Positions 2,852 to 36,510 of a DNA stretch of 64,000 nt are shown here, one piece after another. Positions within the stretch are counted from its first letter, which is position 1, and every line of letters starts with the position of its first letter. The stretch lies in NCBI RefSeq assembly GCF_030013205.1, contig NZ_CP122649.1; one strand, written 5' to 3'. Origin of the DNA: Escherichia coli (GTDB lineage Bacteria > Pseudomonadota > Gammaproteobacteria > Enterobacterales > Enterobacteriaceae). Both the position numbers and the translations under genes were made by a program. A model generated the notes under the pieces. The model had not been told where the DNA came from and did not search any database. It saw only the letters and a program-made list of their open reading frames with translations.

Positions 2852-4057
2852 ATGAATAGTTCGACAAAGATCGCATTGGTAATTACGTTACTCGATGCCA
2901 TGGGGATTGGCCTTATCATGCCAGTCTTGCCAACGTTATTACGTGAATTTATTGCTTCGGAAGATATCGCTAACCACTTTGGCGTATTGCTTGCACTTTA
3001 TGCGTTAATGCAGGTTATCTTTGCTCCTTGGCTTGGAAAAATGTCTGACCGATTTGGTCGGCGCCCAGTGCTGTTGTTGTCATTAATAGGCGCATCGCTG
3101 GATTACTTATTGCTGGCTTTTTCAAGTGCGCTTTGGATGCTGTATTTAGGCCGTTTGCTTTCAGGGATCACAGGAGCTACTGGGGCTGTCGCGGCATCGG
3201 TCATTGCCGATACCACCTCAGCTTCTCAACGCGTGAAGTGGTTCGGTTGGTTAGGGGCAAGTTTTGGGCTTGGTTTAATAGCGGGGCCTATTATTGGTGG
3301 TTTTGCAGGAGAGATTTCACCGCATAGTCCCTTTTTTATCGCTGCGTTGCTAAATATTGTCGCTTTCCTTGTGGTTATGTTTTGGTTCCGTGAAACCAAA
3401 AATACACGTGATAATACAGATACCGAAGTAGGGGTTGAGACGCAATCGAATTCGGTATACATCACTTTATTTAAAACGATGCCCATTTTGTTGATTATTT
3501 ATTTTTCAGCGCAATTGATAGGCCAAATTCCCGCAACGGTGTGGGTGCTATTTACCGAAAATCGTTTTGGATGGAATAGCATGATGGTTGGCTTTTCATT
3601 AGCGGGTCTTGGTCTTTTACACTCAGTATTCCAAGCCTTTGTGGCAGGAAGAATAGCCACTAAATGGGGCGAAAAAACGGCAGTACTGCTCGGATTTATT
3701 GCAGATAGTAGTGCATTTGCCTTTTTAGCGTTTATATCTGAAGGTTGGTTAGTTTTCCCTGTTTTAATTTTATTGGCTGGTGGTGGGATCGCTTTACCTG
3801 CATTACAGGGAGTGATGTCTATCCAAACAAAGAATCATCAGCAAGGTGCTTTACAGGGATTATTGGTGAGCCTTACCAATGCAACCGGTGTTATTGGCCC
3901 ATTACTGTTTGCTGTTATTTATAATCATTCACTACCAATTTGGGATGGCTGGATTTGGATTATTGGTTTAGCGTTTTACTGTATTATTATCCTGCTATCG
4001 ATGACCTTCATGTTAACCCCTCAAGCTCAGGGGAGTAAACAGGAGACAAGTGCTTAG
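2852..4057 (+). CDS. tet(B): tetracycline efflux MFS transporter TetA, class B
   Basis: 401-aa product starting MNSSTKIALVITLLDAMGIGLIMPVLPTLLREF...; the track ORF has a 16-codon upstream extension. Confidence 0.95.
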   Translation: MNSSTKIALVITLLDAMGIGLIMPVLPTLLREFIASEDIANHFGVLLALYALMQVIFAPWLGKMSDRFGRRPVLLLSLIGASLDYLLLAFSSALWMLYLGRLLSGITGATGAVAASVIADTTSASQRVKWFGWLGASFGLGLIAGPIIGGFAGEISPHSPFFIAALLNIVAFLVVMFWFRETKNTRDNTDTEVGVETQSNSVYITLFKTMPILLIIYFSAQLIGQIPATVWVLFTENRFGWNSMMVGFSLAGLGLLHSVFQAFVAGRIATKWGEKTAVLLGFIADSSAFAFLAFISEGWLVFPVLILLAGGGIALPALQGVMSIQTKNHQQGALQGLLVSLTNATGVIGPLLFAVIYNHSLPIWDGWIWIIGLAFYCIIILLSMTFMLTPQAQGSKQETSA

Positions 4058-4099
4058 TTATTTCGTCACCAAATGATGTTATTCCGCGAAATATAATGA

Positions 4100-4129
4100 C
4101 CCTCTTGATAACCCAAGAGGGCATTTTTT
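4100..4129. terminator. rho-independent terminator between convergent tetA and tetC remnant
   Basis: Stem CCCTCTTG / CAAGAGGG followed by a T-run. Confidence 0.6.
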
Positions 4130-4169
4130 ACGATAAAGAAGATTTAGCTTCAAATAAAACCTATCTATT

Positions 4170-4481
4170 TTATTTATCTTTCAAGCTCAATAAAAAGCCG
4201 CGGTAAATAGCAATAAATTGGCCTTTTTTATCGGCAAGCTCTTTTAGGTTTTTCGCATGTATTGCGATATGCATAAACCAGCCATTGAGTAAGTTTTTAA
4301 GCACATCATCATCATAAGCTTTAAGTTGGTTCTCTTGGATCAATTTGCTGACAATGGCGTTTACCTTACCAGTAATGTATTCAAGGCTAATTTTTTCAAG
4401 TTCATTCCAACCAATGATAGGCATCACTTCTTGGATAGGGATAAGGTTTTTATTATTATCAATAATATAATCAAGATAATG
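4170..4481 (-). pseudogene. tetC: 3' remnant of Tn10 tetC (TetR-family-like regulator), 5' end removed by IS1
   Basis: C-terminal 85+ aa ORF convergent with tetA, ending exactly at the IS1 boundary; identification rests on Tn10 gene order. Confidence 0.5.
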
Positions 4482-4536
4482 GGTGATGCTGCCAACTTAC
4501 TGATTTAGTGTATGATGGTGTTTTTGAGGTGCTCCA

Positions 4537-4812
4537 GTGGCTTCTGTTTCTATCAGCTGTCCCTCCTGTTCAGCTACTGACGGGGTGGTGCGTAACGGCA
4601 AAAGCACCGCCGGACATCAGCGCTATCTCTGCTCTCACTGCCGTAAAACATGGCAACTGCAGTTCACTTACACCGCTTCTCAACCCGGTACGCACCAGAA
4701 AATCATTGATATGGCCATGAATGGCGTTGGATGCCGGGCAACCGCCCGCATTATGGGCGTTGGCCTCAACACGATTTTCCGCCATTTAAAAAACTCAGGC
4801 CGCAGTCGGTAA
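4537..4812 (+). CDS. insA: IS1 InsA
   Basis: 91-aa product [40 protein letters not shown]... Confidence 0.92.
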
Positions 4813-5234
4813 CCTCGCGCATACAGCCGGGCAGTGACGTCATCGTCTGCGCGGAAATGGACGAACAGTGGGGATACGTCGGGGCTAAATCGCGCCAGCG
4901 CTGGCTGTTTTACGCGTATGACAGGCTCCGGAAGACGGTTGTTGCGCACGTATTCGGTGAACGCACTATGGCGACGCTGGGGCGTCTTATGAGCCTGCTG
5001 TCACCCTTTGACGTGGTGATATGGATGACGGATGGCTGGCCGCTGTATGAATCCCGCCTGAAGGGAAAGCTGCACGTAATCAGCAAGCGATATACGCAGC
5101 GAATTGAGCGGCATAACCTGAATCTGAGGCAGCACCTGGCACGGCTGGGACGGAAGTCGCTGTCGTTCTCAAAATCGGTGGAGCTGCATGACAAAGTCAT
5201 CGGGCATTATCTGAACATAAAACACTATCAATAA
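4731..5234 (+). CDS. insB: IS1 InsB reading frame (expressed as an InsAB fusion by -1 frameshift)
   Basis: Track ORF in -1 frame relative to insA, overlapping its 3' end. Confidence 0.85.
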
Positions 5235-5266
5235 GTTGGAGTCATTACCTATTTTTTTTACTACTC

Positions 5267-6073
5267 TCAAATTATTTTAATTCGAGGGAGAGCATAATCC
5301 ATTGTTTTGACGGTTCCATTTTCTTTAATTATATAGTGATGCCAACTATCTGATTTTGCGATTGCATCATCATATATACTTTGTGTAATTGCTAAAAAAT
5401 CTATGTTCATCCATGAAAATATCCCTTCATCAACAAATTCTTTTGATATTAATTCATAGTGACTATTTTTTTTCACTCCAACATATAACTTATATTTTTT
5501 CTCTATATTTTCAGCCAAACTATCAAATGAAATTATTGAGAAGTCACTTCGCTGTTGCCCTCTGATTAGTGCAGTTTTCTGTGTATTATTTTCATATTCT
5601 GATCTACGACCATGAACAAGGACATACTTGAAATTAAATGGATTTCTCCCCATATGTGCCGGTTCTATAAATCCCTGCAATATATTGTTTTTAAAGTGAT
5701 TTCTGTTTGATTCATCATCAAACCAAGCCCTCCATGTGTTCATTTGCTGCAAAGCAAGATTGAAGTCTGCATGAAAAGTTGTAGAGTTGTTTTTAAAATA
5801 TTTCGACGATGGTTTTTCAATTTCAACTAATACTACATTCCAGTTATCCGAGCTTTTTGATAAATATACGAAATCAGGTTTATAATCGCTTGATAGAGGC
5901 AACTTTCTAAATACCGTACTGAAGTGAATTCCATGGTTTTGCTCGAATTCTCTTGGTATGAACATTGTATTTTCTTCAAGGTATGTTTGATAAATCTGTT
6001 CATTCTCTTCTCGATCTAGTAATTCAAGATACTCTTTCTTTTTATCGTTTATTTCTTGACCAGTCATATACAT
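5267..6073 (-). CDS. hypothetical protein, 268 aa, AT-rich orphan gene with possible PD-(D/E)xK-like motif
   Basis: Clean 807-bp ORF, about 30 percent GC, between IS1 and the transposase remnant; motif KPDFVYL...VVLVEIEK. Confidence 0.6.
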   Translation of the reverse strand: MYMTGQEINDKKKEYLELLDREENEQIYQTYLEENTMFIPREFEQNHGIHFSTVFRKLPLSSDYKPDFVYLSKSSDNWNVVLVEIEKPSSKYFKNNSTTFHADFNLALQQMNTWRAWFDDESNRNHFKNNILQGFIEPAHMGRNPFNFKYVLVHGRRSEYENNTQKTALIRGQQRSDFSIISFDSLAENIEKKYKLYVGVKKNSHYELISKEFVDEGIFSWMNIDFLAITQSIYDDAIAKSDSWHHYIIKENGTVKTMDYALPRIKII

Positions 6074-6335
6074 AATTTACCATCTTTAAATTTAAGGCTC
6101 TGATTAGATTCATATCTACGCAATAAATTTTACATAGACTTGGTTTGTGGTAAGAAGTCACCGCGAAGCGGTTCGGGGTTCTGTGACACCCGGACTTTAC
6201 CCCGGCTACCCGACGTTTCTCTTTGTATATAATATCATTGAAGTTATTTGCATTTCTCAGAATTTTTTTCAGGCTTTGATTGCATTAACTGCAACACAGC
6301 GCTGCTGGTCAGTGAGTGCGAGGTTTCCGACAAGT

Positions 6336-22553: not shown

Positions 22554-22583
22554 ACTTAAATTGCCTTCGAGTTCTACGTACAA

Positions 22584-22650
22584 CTTTGTTTTAGGGCGAC
22601 TGCCCTGCTGCGTAACATCGTTGCTGCTCCATAACATCAAACATCGACCC
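22584..22650 (-). other. attI1 recombination site of the class 1 integron
   Basis: Reverse complement of the 5'-conserved segment ...GCAGTCGCCCTAAAACAAAGTT at the cassette junction. Confidence 0.7.
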
Positions 22651-22719
22651 ACGGCGTAACGCGCTTGCTGCTTGGATGCTCGAGGCATAGACTGTACAAA
22701 AAAACAGTCATAACAAGCC

Positions 22720-31390: not shown

Positions 31391-31591
31391 TCCAGCCTTG
31401 TTTAACCAGTGAAGCCTAGAATATTGAGATTCAGCCAGGAATAAGGCTGACAACATCATAATTACTGTTAATTAAATGATAGACATTTAGAGTCAAACAT
31501 CCAAGATTTAAAAGCGGCGTCACAGAACTATTAAGGAATGAATTTTTTTACCCTTAAACAAAACCACCGCTTCAGAATGGATAGGCGAATC

Positions 31592-31813
31592 TTACATTAC
31601 AGGAGTTTTTTTCCAGCTGCCAATTTGTTCATGAATCTGCCTTTCAATTCTTTCCACATGAGCTAATAGCTCAGTGTAACCAGGCAGATTGGCGCCAATA
31701 TCACCTTCCCACTGACGGGTTAGCAGGCGGACTTTATCTTTTAGTGTTGAAAGCTGAGTGAGTTGCTTTTTGGCAATCACAATCTCTTCAGAGTATAAAT
31801 TCTTCTTTGGCAT
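31592..31813 (-). CDS. hypothetical protein, 73 aa
   Basis: Track ORF; predicted helical small protein. Confidence 0.35.
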   Translation of the reverse strand: MPKKNLYSEEIVIAKKQLTQLSTLKDKVRLLTRQWEGDIGANLPGYTELLAHVERIERQIHEQIGSWKKTPVM

Positions 31814-31953
31814 ACATTATAAAATTTAACTTAGGTAATGAAGCCTACCTTTTAACACAACCTCGCTTTATTGCAACATTTAATTACATTTACATTCCAC
31901 AGGAACTATAAATTGACCAATATCCAGCACTGCTCCCGTGATTTAGGTTAGCA

Positions 31954-32382
31954 TCATTCCCGGAGTGCAGAGGGATCTTGCAGAGTTTCCGTAAGACGCA
32001 TTTGCAGGTCAGCGACCTCATCCTGAATGCCTTTGAGCTCCGACTGACGGATAATTTCATGGTCGGGCTGATATTCAAACAACGCGAGGAAATCGGCCGT
32101 CAGAAACCGATGCTCATTCAGTCTCTTGTCTTTCGTTGATTTTGAACCGTTCTCAGCGACGATTTCAACGCTTACCCATTCCCCGTAATGCCGGGGGTGA
32201 GCGCGAAGGATGACGGTATGCAGATTGTTATCCACGTACCGCAACGAGTTAATGAGGAGAGTGTCCCCGGCCACAATCGCCTCAGCCGGAATATCGACGA
32301 GCGCAGACCAATACTGCCCTGCCAGCAGAGAATGAAATCGTTCAAGGCGATCGATATTATTTTTACTGACCAGGTCCCCCAT
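31954..32382 (-). CDS. hypothetical protein, 142 aa
   Basis: Track ORF; no recognised motif. Confidence 0.45.
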   Translation of the reverse strand: MGDLVSKNNIDRLERFHSLLAGQYWSALVDIPAEAIVAGDTLLINSLRYVDNNLHTVILRAHPRHYGEWVSVEIVAENGSKSTKDKRLNEHRFLTADFLALFEYQPDHEIIRQSELKGIQDEVADLQMRLTETLQDPSALRE

Positions 32383-33158: not shown

Positions 33159-33773
33159 TCAAGGCATAGATAAATTGTTATCACACCAATATTGATGCAG
33201 GCCTGCAATCCATACTTTCGAGACTGCCGACAGCGTCTGCGCCAGATCACGCATACATTCAGGTGTGAATAACCGGACTGGCTCCCCCATACCGTCACTC
33301 GCAGTGATGATGTGCTCCAGGATGTTCCCGTGACATAAATTGTGCCGAACCCTCACGATTTCCGCATAGGGTAGTTTCGGGGCGCCGTCCGCAATCTTGG
33401 TCAGCAGATCCTGCTCGTCGGGAAAGGCCAGCAGTGTCACCGGCATACCGGCCTGGTGAGCCCTTCTTAGCAGAGCATTACTGAGTGTGGCCATATCGCT
33501 TAAGTCCACCAGCGGTGTTGGTGCCTGCGGTTGTGCCTGCGACGCCTTCAGCTTCATCGTCACCCTCAGTGAGGTCTCAATCCCGTTCAGGAAAGTCGTA
33601 CAGGCGGCTAGCCACAACTCACCGTGAATGGCCCGGGTAGCCTGGTCAAAGAACCAGTCAATCGCAGCTGTCGTTCGGTACGCCCTGTATGCCTCCAGTT
33701 CCCGTAACTGTGCCAGGTACTTCTCGCACGCCTCTGCGTCTACCGGATCGTTATCGTCGGTATCGATAGCCAT
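33159..33773 (-). CDS. hypothetical protein, 204 aa
   Basis: Track ORF, higher GC than neighbours; no recognised motif. Confidence 0.45.
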   Translation of the reverse strand: MAIDTDDNDPVDAEACEKYLAQLRELEAYRAYRTTAAIDWFFDQATRAIHGELWLAACTTFLNGIETSLRVTMKLKASQAQPQAPTPLVDLSDMATLSNALLRRAHQAGMPVTLLAFPDEQDLLTKIADGAPKLPYAEIVRVRHNLCHGNILEHIITASDGMGEPVRLFTPECMRDLAQTLSAVSKVWIAGLHQYWCDNNLSMP

Positions 33774-33912
33774 AGGGAATTCCTGTTGTCATGTTCGTGA
33801 ATGAAAATCCGCTGAACCATATCATACCGTTACATAAATTACGGCTTAGTGCCGGGATATCTTTCCCGAATGCTGAGCCATTGAAATTTGATCTTTTCTC
33901 TTTATCTGGTAA

Positions 33913-33932
33913 TACTGGTTAAATATCCAGTA
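33913..33932 (+). promoter_or_regulatory. LexA (SOS) box upstream of umuD-like gene
   Basis: TACTGGTTAAATATCCAGTA fits the CTG-N10-CAG consensus, about 20 bp before the ATG. Confidence 0.7.
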
Positions 33933-33950
33933 TTGAATCCGAGTGTGCTC

Positions 33951-34385
33951 ATGTCTGTATTCCCTGAACGTTTTGCATCCCCTCCTCGTGATACAACCCC
34001 TTTTTTCAGTGACCTACTGAGTTGCGGGGTGATGAGTCCGTGCGCCGGACACGAAGACAATGAGCTGAATTTACATGATTTTGTGGTTCGTAATCGCCCC
34101 GCGACTTTCTTTGTCAGGGCCTCAGGTCTCAGCATGGTAGACGCCGGAATAAACGACGGCGCCATACTGGTTGTGGATCGGTCACTGACTGCGGAGCACG
34201 GCTCAATCGTCGTTGCGCTGGTTGACGGCGAGTTTACCGTGAAGATTTTGCAGACCTTCCCGAAACTGATGTTGATGCCCTCCAACCCCGCCTTCAAGCC
34301 GATACCTGTTAACCCGGACACTCTTGAAATCTGGGGCGTTGTCACCTTTGCGTTGAATCAGTTTCCTCATGTACATGCACGTTGA
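33951..34385 (+). CDS. umuD: UmuD/MucA-family SOS mutagenesis protein (S24 LexA-like peptidase)
   Basis: Cleavage-site CG, Ser (ASGLSMVDAGI) and Lys (EFTVKIL) dyad conserved; the track ORF has an upstream extension. Confidence 0.8.
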   Translation: MSVFPERFASPPRDTTPFFSDLLSCGVMSPCAGHEDNELNLHDFVVRNRPATFFVRASGLSMVDAGINDGAILVVDRSLTAEHGSIVVALVDGEFTVKILQTFPKLMLMPSNPAFKPIPVNPDTLEIWGVVTFALNQFPHVHAR

Positions 34386-35628
34386 TATCAATGGAGCCTA
34401 CGCGGCATTTGAATGCGCCATGGACCCCAAACTTGCCAAATCCCCGCTCATCATCGCGAGCAACAACGATGCCACCATTATCGCCATGAACAGGCTCGCC
34501 AAAAATACAGGGCTCAAACGCGGGATGCCTATCTTCAAATGCCGGGATCTGATTGAGCAGCATCATATTGCGGTACGGAGCTCCAACTTTACGTTGTACG
34601 AAGATTATTCCAACCGGTTTCATGAAACGCTGGAGGGGTTTGCCGAGGATACCGATCGTTACAGCGTGGATGAAAGCTTCATGCTACTGAAAAACATGGA
34701 CAAAATAGTAGATTTTGAAGAGTACGGATGCCTGATCAGACGAACGCTGCTACACAATCTTTCGCTCACCTGCGGGATTGGAGTATCGACCACGAAAACG
34801 CTCGCAAAATTATGCACCTACGCCAGTAAGCGATGGGCAGCAACTGGTGGTGTGGTCGTCCTTACAGACCCATTCCGAATTAAAAAACTGCTGAGTCTCA
34901 TCAGTACCCGGGAAATCTGGGGCATTGGCCGCAAAATCAGTGAGCGGCTGGCTGCGTACGGGATCATCACGGCCTGCGACTTTTATGACAGCGATGTGCG
35001 GTTTTTACGAAAGGCATTCGGTGTTGAAATGGAACGTACCTGGCGGGAGCTGCATGGCGAGTCCTGTTTCCGGTTGCATGAATCCCCTCCTGTCAGACAA
35101 CAAATTATCGTCTCACGGAGCTTTGGCCAGCGCCTTAATACATTCAGCAAGATGCATGAGGCAGTGTCATTCTTTACCGGCCGTGCCGCTGAACAGCTTC
35201 GAAACGATGGCTCCTGGACTCGCCAAATCACCGTGTTTATCCAGAGCAGCCCGTTTGCCAGAGCTGAAACCCGGTACAGCAGCTGCGGTATTGAGCCGCT
35301 TACTGCGACGCAGGACACCCGCGACCTGGTCAGTGCGGCAGGCGCCATACTGACCCGAATCTACAAACCCGGCATAGATTATGCGAAGGCGGGCGTGATG
35401 CTTTCGTCAATGACCGATGGCACTGAGCAGCTATCCCTGTTCGATGAACGTCCCGCCAGGCGAGGCAGTGAAGCACTGATGAAGGTGATGGATCGGTTTA
35501 ACAAAGAGCATCGAGGTTCTCTGTTTCTGGCTTGCGAAGGGATTCATCAGGATTTCCGGGGGAAGCAGGCCATGCTGTCCCCACGGTATACCACTCGCTG
35601 GAATGAGTTACTTGTCGTCAAAGCCTGA
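34369..35628 (+). CDS. umuC: UmuC/MucB-family Y-family DNA polymerase subunit
   Basis: 419 aa; N-terminus HVDINGAYAAFEC...IIASNNDATIIA...YSVDESF parallels the UmuC catalytic motifs but is divergent; overlaps umuD 3' end. Confidence 0.8.
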   Translation: MYMHVDINGAYAAFECAMDPKLAKSPLIIASNNDATIIAMNRLAKNTGLKRGMPIFKCRDLIEQHHIAVRSSNFTLYEDYSNRFHETLEGFAEDTDRYSVDESFMLLKNMDKIVDFEEYGCLIRRTLLHNLSLTCGIGVSTTKTLAKLCTYASKRWAATGGVVVLTDPFRIKKLLSLISTREIWGIGRKISERLAAYGIITACDFYDSDVRFLRKAFGVEMERTWRELHGESCFRLHESPPVRQQIIVSRSFGQRLNTFSKMHEAVSFFTGRAAEQLRNDGSWTRQITVFIQSSPFARAETRYSSCGIEPLTATQDTRDLVSAAGAILTRIYKPGIDYAKAGVMLSSMTDGTEQLSLFDERPARRGSEALMKVMDRFNKEHRGSLFLACEGIHQDFRGKQAMLSPRYTTRWNELLVVKA

Positions 35629-35679
35629 CGTTCATGCCGGTGTTACCCGGCATGGCCAGTTTCGGAAGGAAAAGTAACT

Positions 35680-36510
35680 TTAGCCTCCACGGGCCTTCTG
35701 GATTGCGTATTTCAGGGTGGCCTCGTCAACAGCGCCCGGGATGAATGACGTCGTTGCAGCGTCGGGTTTTTGCATGTTCATAATAATGAACCCTGGCGTA
35801 CCGTTAATCCCGAGAGCTTCCCCCAGCTGCATGTTTCCGGAGATAACGTTCTCATAGCGGCTTTTCTCCCGATCGCCGAATGAGCTGTTGAACCCGGATT
35901 TGTTCACAACCATGTCTAAATCATTGAGTGTAAACGCACGCTGGTTGTTGAAGAATACATACGCACTGGTCATCAGATTGTTGTGATACTTACGATACGC
36001 TTCCGCACCGAATGTCTGATACACATGCAGGCCTGTCGCCGCCCCCATTGCGGAAACAGGTTTTGAGCCAGCGAAGATCGGAAATTCTTTAAAGAAGAAC
36101 TTTACATCAGTGCTTTGGCTCAACACAGATTCAACAACCGGCGCTACCTGCATACAGAAATGACACTGGTAGTCGAAAAACTCAATAACAGCGACGGCCG
36201 CATTATCAGGTCCGATATTGGGTGTCTCTTTGGTCTCGAAGAGTGCCGGTGCGTAGGGGATAATCCGCTCAAGGGAAGCGTTAGTATTTTCTTTTTCTAG
36301 CGCCTTACCTGCTTCGAGAAGATACTGGGGATTTTTTACCAGATAGGAAGCAGCTACTCGTCCTATTTCGTCGTTACCCGGTACATCGGGTTTTAGATAT
36401 TTCGACGTAATATACACAGAGCCAGCCGTCGCAATCACCGCAGAAATTAAAACAGACGCCACGGGTTTTAAATAATTTAATTTAATCATAGCCACCTTTA
36501 CGCATTTCAA
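35680..36510 (-). CDS. DsbA-like thiol:disulfide oxidoreductase (thioredoxin fold, CHFC)
   Basis: FDYQCHFCMQ active-site motif; N-terminal hydrophobic segment. Confidence 0.7.
   Translation of the reverse strand: MKCVKVAMIKLNYLKPVASVLISAVIATAGSVYITSKYLKPDVPGNDEIGRVAASYLVKNPQYLLEAGKALEKENTNASLERIIPYAPALFETKETPNIGPDNAAVAVIEFFDYQCHFCMQVAPVVESVLSQSTDVKFFFKEFPIFAGSKPVSAMGAATGLHVYQTFGAEAYRKYHNNLMTSAYVFFNNQRAFTLNDLDMVVNKSGFNSSFGDREKSRYENVISGNMQLGEALGINGTPGFIIMNMQKPDAATTSFIPGAVDEATLKYAIQKARGG

Follow-up and report, generated by a model that had tools for sequence, protein, structure and literature searches.

A umuDC-like operon of the IncHI1 plasmid backbone

The DNA analysed (a stretch of 64 kb, hereafter called the window) is an IncHI1 plasmid, and the locus is the operon in the IncHI1 backbone that encodes a predicted translesion polymerase of the pol V type. 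It comprises two genes on the plus strand. The first is a umuD/mucA-like gene (R0137 in R27) from positions 33951 to 34385, with its ATG at 33951 and its stop codon at 34383-34385, coding for 144 amino acids. The second is a umuC/mucB-like gene of the Y-family polymerases (R0136 in R27) from 34369 to 35628, which overlaps the first by 17 nt and codes for 419 amino acids starting with MYMHVDINGAYAAFEC. Upstream of both lies a palindromic LexA (SOS) box, TACTGGTTAAATATCCAGTA, at 33913 to 33932.

The locus is 99.8-100% identical to that of 212 IncHI1 plasmids, R27 among them, and the two R27 proteins in RefSeq (WP_001395519.1 and WP_000281816.1), annotated there as umuD and Y-family polymerase, are identical to the window pair. 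A single base differs between the window (T) and R27 (G), at 33910 in the promoter spacer. In the R27 literature R0137/R0136 are named mucA/mucB and assigned to "UV protection", and papers on IncHI2 plasmids likewise label their operon 'mucAB'. The original prediction of a divergent lineage is borne out by the comparisons below, but the operon itself is not new: it is the R27 mucA/mucB operon, from which it does not differ in substance and of which the IncHI2 'mucAB' is the counterpart, an ordinary kind of system already known by annotation since R27 was sequenced. Searches of the literature for experiments on the function of IncHI umuDC/mucAB, such as tests of LexA binding, of induction or of a role in UV protection and mutagenesis, returned annotation-level mentions only. 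The window copy is present in at least 214 plasmid records, and copies at 80-90% protein identity occur in about 930 further plasmid records, the one examined being IncHI2. The IncHI2 (R478-type) operon, 84% (polymerase) and 81% (UmuD-like) identical at the protein level, also has the neighbours found in the window, namely a divergent gene for a hypothetical protein of 204/205 amino acids and a convergent dsbA-family gene. In a few plasmids the polymerase gene is broken by ISKpn26 or truncated, and it is therefore dispensable for plasmid maintenance.

The flanking hypothetical genes had no match in Pfam or PADLOC, and an Rfam scan of the locus gave no match. An inverted repeat with a 9-bp stem and a 6-nt loop lies at 35632 to 35655, in the gap on which the polymerase gene and the dsbA-like gene converge. 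Its fold energy of -18.8 kcal/mol is not significantly better than that of shuffled sequences (z = -1.1) and no T-run follows it; with low confidence, it may be a terminator.

The UmuD-like protein matches Pfam Peptidase_S24 (PF00717; E = 1.7e-22) and the NCBIfam model of the pol V autoproteolytic subunit (NF007621; 128 bits, cut-off 110). When it was aligned with UmuD, MucA, ImpA and SamA, Cys25-Gly26 (34023-34028) fell in the column of UmuD Cys24-Gly25, Ser61 (in SGLSM; 34131-34133) in that of Ser60 and Lys98 (in EFTVK; 34242-34244) in that of Lys97. The intact cleavage site and Ser/Lys dyad that had been read from the sequence are thus in register with those of UmuD, and the protein combines the domain, the dyad and the Ala/Cys-Gly bond of an S24 accessory subunit. 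By homology, it would cleave itself at Cys25-Gly26. The Cys-Gly bond is that of UmuD, in contrast to the Ala-Gly bond of MucA, whereas the residues from the bond onwards are GFPSPA in UmuD and GVMSPC in the window protein. Identity is 81% to the IncHI2 copy, 50% to IncL/M UmuD, 47% to MucA and 43% to UmuD, and dN/dS relative to the IncHI2 gene is about 0.06.

The polymerase exceeds the cut-offs of the Pfam models IMS (104 bits), IMS_C (73) and DUF4113 (58.5). It also passes the NCBIfam UmuC model NF002955 over residues 1-418, by the narrow margin of 443.2 bits against a cut-off of 431, which accords with its RefSeq name of merely 'Y-family DNA polymerase'. Across a 55-sequence alignment D6, D101 and E102 do not vary and Y11 hardly does, and the window polymerase has all four, with the numbering of E. 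coli UmuC (422 amino acids). The codons of D6 and Y11 lie at 34384-34386 and 34399-34401, and D101 and E102 belong to the motif SVDESF (34663-34680). E15, SNND, TKTLAK, the clamp-binding-type motif QLSLF (35428-35442; QLNLF in UmuC) and the C-terminal LSPRYTTRW are retained as well. The family models, the catalytic carboxylates and the steric-gate aromatic residue all place the protein in the UmuC subfamily. Its AlphaFold2 model (pLDDT 87.8) has a confident Y-family fold of palm, fingers, thumb and little finger, and the best Foldseek matches of the model were MsDpo4, DinB, Dpo4, Rev1, pol iota and pol kappa, with E values from 1e-21 to 1e-24. A sequence search of the PDB returned Pol IV, Dpo4 and pol iota only and no structure of UmuC type.

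Operator and promoter

The box at 33913-33932 is an exact TACTG-N10-CAGTA and the only one in the 64-kb window, where shuffled sequences lead one to expect 0.06. With an approximate position weight matrix for LexA, derived from about 26 boxes of E. coli, it scored 24.6 bits, which ranks it with the best of the known boxes; the runner-up in the window reached 15.5 bits. A good LexA box before the UmuD-like gene had been predicted, and it is there. It ends 18 nt before the ATG, a spacing in keeping with the 19 nt of umuDC, 15 of mucAB, 21 of impCAB and 17 of samAB; in having a single box, 15-18 nt ahead of its first gene, the window operon is like mucAB. The position is that of the box in six known LexA-controlled homologous operons, and equivalent boxes are found in IncHI2 (TACTGTTTATACATACAGTA), L013 (TACTGTGTATATAACCAGTA) and L014 (TACTGTGTTTATGTACAGTG). 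Both half-sites are retained in four diverged relatives, although the surrounding DNA has changed. The CTG and CAG cores of the window box are flanked by G and C instead of T and A, which may lower its affinity for LexA relative to that of umuDC.

A scan for consensus promoters from 33600 to 35800 called nothing at a threshold of 9/12, and the promoter was therefore placed by conservation. The putative -35 hexamer, TTGATC (33888-33893, plus strand), belongs to TTTGATCTTT, a stretch that does not vary among the upstream regions of the IncHI1, IncHI2, Lelliottia-type and Buttiauxella-type operons, although its flanks have diverged. The putative -10 hexamer, AATACT (33911-33916, plus strand), follows 17 nt later, and its last 4 nt are also the start of the LexA box. 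All four clade members have A/GATACT at this spacing, and the LexA box and the two hexamers are the only conserved blocks of an upstream region that has otherwise diverged. The arrangement is that of E. coli umuDC, in which TTGATC likewise precedes TACTGT by 17 nt and the -10 hexamer overlaps the box. Both hexamers are weak, with 8 of 12 consensus positions in total and 4 of 6 for TTGATC against TTGACA.

The exact box over the presumed -10 hexamer corresponds to an SOS operator, that is, a CTG-N10-CAG overlapping a promoter. Four clade members have both it and TTGATC, their coding sequences being saturated at synonymous sites. The sequence and its comparison thus support the view that the operon is under SOS control, as originally proposed. 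On the R27 transcriptome arrays the expression of R0136/R0137 is independent of temperature and HtdA, which control their neighbours R0135 and R0138-R0140; this fits a separate transcription unit.

That the palindrome is a chance match or the site of another regulator, and the operon outside SOS control, seems to us extremely improbable. Such a reading could draw on the low but measurable signal of R0136/R0137 on the R27 arrays without DNA damage, on the empty promoter scan and on LexA binding being predicted from the palindrome, but it would leave to coincidence the rarity of exact matches, the placement of the box and the retention of its half-sites in changed surroundings.

Relationship to other UmuC-family polymerases

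The window polymerase shares 84% identity with the IncHI2 copy and 67-75% with those of a few related large plasmids. Its identity to UmuC, MucB, ImpB, SamB and the homologues on IncL/M and Proteus plasmids is 42-48%, whereas these are 49-72% identical among themselves; with RulB of pWW0 it shares 36%. In a library clustered at 50% identity it forms a cluster of its own, the next representative being MucB at 47%. Trees of 26, 56, 57 and 160 taxa, without RumB of R391/SXT, were built, with neighbour joining on Kimura distances for the bootstraps. The IncHI clade was monophyletic in 95-98% of the bootstraps and never fell inside another clade, while MucB with the IncL/M protein, ImpB with SamB, and UmuC formed clades of their own (96-100% bootstrap) from which the IncHI proteins were excluded. 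The IncHI polymerases thus form a separate, long-branched lineage of the UmuC family, as the original prediction had it, and in the phylogeny against UmuC, MucB, ImpB, SamB and RulB that it had called for they do not cluster with canonical MucB. The deep placement of the clade is unstable, and we claim no sister group. The 26-taxon tree made it the sister of every enterobacterial protein sampled (73% support), the 160-taxon tree gave it the MucB group as nearest neighbour, and the 56- and 57-taxon trees mostly joined it to an enterobacterial plasmid group (P0011/P0013/P0021) as sister or put it at the base of the whole tree. The DinB outgroup may have drawn it by long-branch attraction.

MucA and MucB of the IncN plasmids pKM101/R46 (pol RI) are also plasmid-borne and also pair a Ser/Lys autoprotease with a Y-family polymerase, and their names are those used in the R27 and IncHI2 papers. 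The 17-nt gene overlap of the window resembles the 13 nt of mucAB and IncL/M and not the 1 nt of umuDC, impAB and samAB, Gly9 of the N-terminal motif is common to MucB and the window polymerase, and the UmuD-like protein is nearest to its IncL/M and MucA counterparts. With the nearest-neighbour position of the MucB group in one tree, these likenesses argue for the operon being a mere copy of the canonical mucAB and no separate lineage, a reading that we nevertheless hold to be highly improbable. The window polymerase is 46% identical to MucB and equally so to UmuC, against 64% between MucB and the IncL/M protein, and it reaches neither this level nor a common grouping with MucB. The two fall in different clusters of the 50%-identity library and in separate, well-supported clades, and the commonest bootstrap sister of the IncHI clade (63 of 100) is the P0011/P0013/P0021 group, not MucB. 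At residues 10 and 14, MucB has Met and Cys and the window polymerase Ala and Phe.

ImpC/ImpA/ImpB (IncI), SamA/SamB (pSLT) and RulA/RulB (pWW0) belong to the same family and have the same two-gene core, and the imp and sam operons carry LexA boxes, as the window operon does. Unlike the imp operon, however, the latter has no impC/dinI-like first gene, and its polymerase is 42-43% identical to ImpB and SamB. From E. coli UmuC and UmuD the window proteins differ at the level of 46% (polymerase) and 43% (UmuD-like) identity.

In the comparison of the polymerase gene with that of IncHI2, pN was 0.10 and pS 0.77, a value at which synonymous sites are saturated, and codons 1-40 had a pN of 0.057. 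Since nonsynonymous divergence is so low against saturated synonymous sites, the gene has been under strong, long-term purifying selection over its whole length, codons 1-40 included.

The polymerase N-terminus and the proposed function

The N-terminus MYMHVDINGAYAAFEC aligns residue for residue with that of UmuC, MFALCDVNAFYASCE, and D6, N8, Y11 and E15 are kept. Five near-invariant positions carry changes specific to the clade, which also distinguish the window polymerase from UmuC: L4H, F10A, S13A, C14F and F18M. The start had been correctly quoted in the original prediction and its divergence stands, but it is not another motif in place of the usual one. Across the protein, 12 of the 83 positions conserved in the family (at least 85% conservation) are substituted, Phe10 beside the steric gate among them, and polymerase activity could on these grounds differ from that of pol V. 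Within residues 1-20 the IncHI clade has replaced four of the nine conserved positions, compared with 8 of 74 in the rest of the protein (Fisher p = 0.02), and seven of the 12 replaced positions fall within residues 1-51, in the N-terminus and fingers (Fisher p = 0.012).

Of the 151 family representatives that have a residue at position 10, directly before the steric-gate Tyr11, 138 have Phe10; Cys14, one helical turn further on, is present in 142 of 151. In the window polymerase they are replaced by Ala (codon 34396-34398) and Phe (34408-34410), respectively. All four other representatives with Ala10 have a bulky residue 14 (Trp, Met, Met and Phe), compared with none of the 147 without Ala10, a pairing that suggests a recurrent compensatory swap beside the steric gate. 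A contact between residues 10 and 14 is supported, in the AlphaFold model, by the predicted helix 10-18 alone. In E. coli UmuC, the F10L substitution sharply increases sugar selectivity and fidelity and lowers spontaneous mutagenesis about 17-fold (PMC3401427). Because this single change shifts both selectivity and fidelity, we tentatively propose that the steric-gate neighbourhood of the IncHI-clade polymerase is remodelled and that Ala10/Phe14 may alter ribonucleotide discrimination and mutational output relative to pol V.

The clustering of substitutions in the active-site N-terminus and fingers, the borderline score against the UmuC model and the fact that literature searches found no Muc+ phenotype for IncHI plasmids could also be taken to mean that the operon is not mutagenic, either because the polymerase-like protein has lost or changed catalysis and become an ImuB-like scaffold or because the UmuD-like protein is a regulator akin to UmuDAb. 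Both are very unlikely. The inactive scaffold was rejected on the presence of the catalytic residues D6, D101 and E102, which are kept together with Y11 of the steric gate and the remaining near-invariant motifs, and the regulator on the absence of an added DNA-binding domain from the 144-residue protein. ImuB-type proteins are not known to have the catalytic carboxylates. Purifying selection extends over the whole gene, and the pairing of Ala10 with a bulky residue 14 looks like compensation and not decay.

We therefore regard the locus as very probably a LexA-repressed, bicistronic operon of the IncHI1 backbone (mucA/mucB of R27) for a pol V-type translesion polymerase. From homology with UmuD'2C, MucA'2B and other characterised orthologues we would expect LexA to bind the box, the UmuD-like protein to cleave itself, the polymerase to be active and the operon to have a UV and mutagenesis phenotype. 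In the undamaged cell, a dimer of host LexA on 33913-33932 would keep the promoter shut, since both the -10 hexamer and the expected start of transcription overlap with the box. Whenever DNA was damaged, or single-stranded DNA arose from any source, RecA filaments would form, LexA would cleave itself and the operon would be transcribed, the translation of the two genes probably being coupled through their 17-nt overlap. The dimer of the UmuD-like protein, on the RecA filament, would then cleave itself at Cys25-Gly26 by means of the Ser61/Lys98 dyad, and the shortened dimer would bind the 419-residue polymerase. Aided by RecA-ATP and the beta clamp (through QLSLF), this complex would copy past lesions. 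Such bypass would protect against UV at the cost of mutations.

The additions made by this analysis are modest: the IncHI lineage is quantified as separate, long-branched and under strong purifying selection, its conserved promoter and operator are defined, and a testable point is raised on the residue adjoining the steric gate. Much of the multidrug resistance seen in Salmonella Typhi, E. coli, Enterobacter and Klebsiella resides on IncHI1 and IncHI2 plasmids, and with a mutator polymerase in the conserved backbone that is induced by damage, resistance could evolve faster under antibiotics that trigger the SOS response. If the steric-gate neighbourhood is remodelled, IncHI plasmids may have a pol V orthologue that differs in ribonucleotide discrimination and mutational output.

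The operon on IncHI1 and related plasmids

The region from 33880 to 35640 was found to be 100% identical to several plasmids, among them the E. coli ETEC4079 plasmid NZ_CP122645.1, and 99.8% identical to the Salmonella Typhi plasmid R27 (NC_002305). It matched 214 plasmid records, 212 of them at 99% identity or more, and nearly all of these are large conjugative MOBH/MPF_F plasmids. The matches to R27 and other near-identical large conjugative plasmids therefore identify the window as IncHI1 backbone. The operon is not new, as it is annotated in R27 and in hundreds of further plasmids: RefSeq names its genes umuD (WP_001395519.1) and 'Y-family DNA polymerase' (WP_000281816.1), papers on R27 list mucA (R0137) and mucB (R0136), 'UV protection protein', and those on IncHI2 count a 'mutagenesis induction system (mucAB)' among the backbone features.

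Three plasmids (NZ_CP016184.1, NZ_CP016183.1 and NZ_CP023167.1) are natural knock-outs of the polymerase gene. In two of them, both IncHI1, an ISKpn26 insertion interrupts the gene, and in the third the C-terminal 164 codons alone are left. Since a few plasmids carry such insertions or truncations, the operon is not essential to the plasmid, and these plasmids are possible partners for phenotypic comparison with intact ones.

The divergently transcribed neighbouring gene (33159-33773, minus strand; 204 aa; R27 R0138) is conserved in IncHI2 as 205 aa and had no Pfam or PADLOC match; on R27 arrays it is HtdA-responsive, unlike mucAB. In its place the Buttiauxella-type contig has a SRAP-domain gene (contig positions 2763-3431; PF02586, SOS-response-associated peptidase family), immediately before the LexA box and umuD-like gene, with which it shares its orientation. 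Approximately 3.05 kb of the R27 locus (locus positions 3028-6077) is absent from the window, where the counterpart spans 31421-32382; all that is left of an R27 hypothetical gene of 1111 aa is its N-terminal part, as a remnant ORF of 142 aa (31954-32382, minus strand). Both the Lelliottia-type and the Buttiauxella-type contig have this gene at a length of 1110-1115 aa. In the resistance region, the record annotates a 'Shedu immune nuclease family protein' gene (5267-6067) between IS1 and IS26, which may be a fragment.

LexA box, promoter and UmuD-like protein

A good LexA box had been predicted upstream of the UmuD-like gene, and this was borne out. The box TACTGGTTAAATATCCAGTA (33913-33932) is an exact TACTG-N10-CAGTA, the only one in the 64 kb (0.06 expected), and its score of 24.6 bits, on an approximate weight matrix of about 26 E. 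coli boxes, ranks among the best known boxes; the runner-up in the window scored 15.5. Between the box and the ATG at 33951 lie 18 nt, a placement shared with umuDC, mucAB, impCAB, samAB and three other fetched plasmid operons, whose gaps are 11-21 nt. A second LexA-type palindrome, GACTGTACAAAAAAACAGTC (22690-22709; 15.5 bits on the same approximate matrix), lies about 60 nt from a class 1 integron attI/aminoglycoside-leader element (22555-22630; Rfam RF02912, 61.8 bits) and appears to be the LexA site already described at integron integrase promoters; on its integrase side this integron is apparently cut by IS26 at ~23321.

The upstream DNA of IncHI1, IncHI2 pK475-2 and the Lelliottia-type and Buttiauxella-type contigs was aligned, and only two blocks are conserved. 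The first, TTTGATCTTT, contains TTGATC (33888-33893), and the second, A/GATACTG...CAGT, has a -10-like A/GATACT (33911-33916) and runs into the LexA box. The two hexamers are 17 nt apart in all four members, a layout identical to the TTGATC-17 nt-TACTGT of E. coli umuDC. Synonymous sites have reached saturation between the genes of IncHI1 and IncHI2 (pS 0.77), so that the two conserved blocks represent a genuine footprint. The promoter was deduced from conservation because the hexamers are weak (8/12) and were not reported by a consensus promoter scan. In a published R27 transcriptome, R0136 and R0137 show neither induction at 25 degrees C versus 37 degrees C nor derepression when htdA is mutated; their neighbour R0135 (dsbA) responds, as do R0138-R0140 in the htdA comparison, which is consistent with R0136/R0137 forming a separate transcription unit.

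The UmuD-like gene (33951-34385) codes for 144 aa matching Peptidase_S24 and the NCBI pol V autoproteolytic-subunit model. Its cleavage site and Ser/Lys dyad are intact, as originally proposed: Cys25-Gly26, Ser61 and Lys98 align in register with UmuD Cys24-Gly25, Ser60 and Lys97. The gene shows a dN/dS of ~0.06 between IncHI1 and IncHI2 and overlaps the polymerase gene by 17 nt. The IncHI1 and IncHI2 proteins have six extra C-terminal residues (PHVHAR/SHVHAR; IncHI1 stop at 34383-34385), and the Lelliottia- and Buttiauxella-type proteins end in ...QF/EF just before the polymerase ATG (~3999 in both contigs). The IncHI1/IncHI2 ancestor seems to have lost a stop codon.

This analysis established directly which features the sequence has, how they are conserved and how they are selected, and all biochemical steps are inferred from characterised orthologues. 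By analogy, LexA bound over the -10 and start-site region would repress the operon, RecA* would lift this repression, the UmuD-like dimer would cleave itself at Cys25-Gly26, and the cleaved dimer would act with the polymerase, RecA-ATP and the clamp in error-prone lesion bypass.

A divergent polymerase lineage

The polymerase gene (34369-35628) codes for 419 aa beginning MYMHVDINGAYAAFEC, as first read, with matches to IMS, IMS_C and DUF4113. The catalytic carboxylates D6, D101 and E102 are kept, TKTLAK and the C-terminal LSPRYTTRW are present, and the clamp-type motif is QLSLF, whereas UmuC has QLNLF. Compared with the IncHI2 copy, pN is 0.10 with pS saturated. The AlphaFold2 model (pLDDT 87.8) has Y-family polymerases as its best structural matches.

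Identity is 84% to the IncHI2 copy and 67-75% to a handful of proteins on large contigs with the same dsbA/lipoprotein/dsbC synteny (e.g. Lelliottia, Buttiauxella); nothing was found between this group and ≤51%. It falls to 46% for UmuC and MucB, 45% for the IncL/M protein, 43% for SamB, 42% for ImpB and a Proteus plasmid protein, and 36% for RulB of pWW0. The canonical enterobacterial polymerases share 49-72% with each other, and RulB 44-47% with them. The pWW0 rulB reading frame (1406-2614 of the fetched locus, minus strand) is missing from the genes in the PLSDB table. As an ORF it stops after 402 aa and lacks the LSPxYTT motif usually found at the C-terminus, possibly through truncation or a frameshift.

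In the 50%-identity library, the IncHI1, IncHI2 and Lelliottia-/Buttiauxella-type polymerases (IncHI clade) form one cluster, the next representative being MucB (47%). The score clears the cut-off of the NCBI UmuC model by a mere 12 bits, hence the generic RefSeq name. The clade is monophyletic in 95-98% of NJ bootstraps and is excluded from MucB+IncL/M (96-100%), ImpB+SamB (95-99%) and UmuC (100%). The proposed divergent lineage is thus upheld, and no grouping with canonical MucB was seen in these bootstraps. The sister group varies, with no stable placement. A weak link with the MucAB branch shows in the overlapping gene arrangement and Gly9, both common to that branch, and in the UmuD-like protein, whose closest canonical counterparts are those of IncL/M (50%) and MucA (47%).

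The N-terminus and the residue 10/14 pairing

The N-terminus had been described as unusual. The motif itself is the same as that of UmuC, to which it aligns without gaps, but clade-specific changes do occur at near-invariant positions. The comparison covered 155 other family sequences, mostly 50%-identity representatives plus six fetched named homologues, 151 of them with residues over the motif. The IncHI clade keeps D6, N8, Y11, E15, P20, L22, P26 and S31-N-N-D34, and replaces L4 (88% of the 155) by His, F10 (89%) by Ala, S13 (92%) by Ala, C14 (92%) by Phe and F18 (149/151) by Met. Over the whole protein, the consensus residue is never present in the clade at 12 of the 83 positions of at least 85% conservation; replaced positions make up 4/9 of the conserved ones in residues 1-20 versus 8/74 elsewhere (p=0.02), and seven of the 12 replaced positions lie in residues 1-51 (p=0.012).

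In the four other representatives that have Ala10, residue 14 is Trp, Met, Met and Phe, whereas a bulky residue 14 occurs in none of the 147 representatives without Ala10 (Fisher p=5e-8, uncorrected for phylogeny). In a tree from which the N-terminal columns were left out, all four lie outside the IncHI clade: P0160 and P0182 are loosely paired, P0136 falls in their broader clade of 13, and P0131 is apart from all three. Given this scattered placement, the pairing probably arose more than once. Residues 2-7 form a strand and residues 10-18 a helix in the AlphaFold2 model, so that positions 10 and 14 would be separated by a single helical turn and point the same way, and Ala10/Phe14 looks like a compensatory swap beside the steric gate. 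Such a swap could matter because F10L alone in UmuC makes pol V far more ribonucleotide-selective and more accurate, with ~45 versus 770 His+ revertants (PMC3401427). The recurrent pairing of Ala10 with a bulky residue 14 next to the steric gate is the sole new angle of this analysis.
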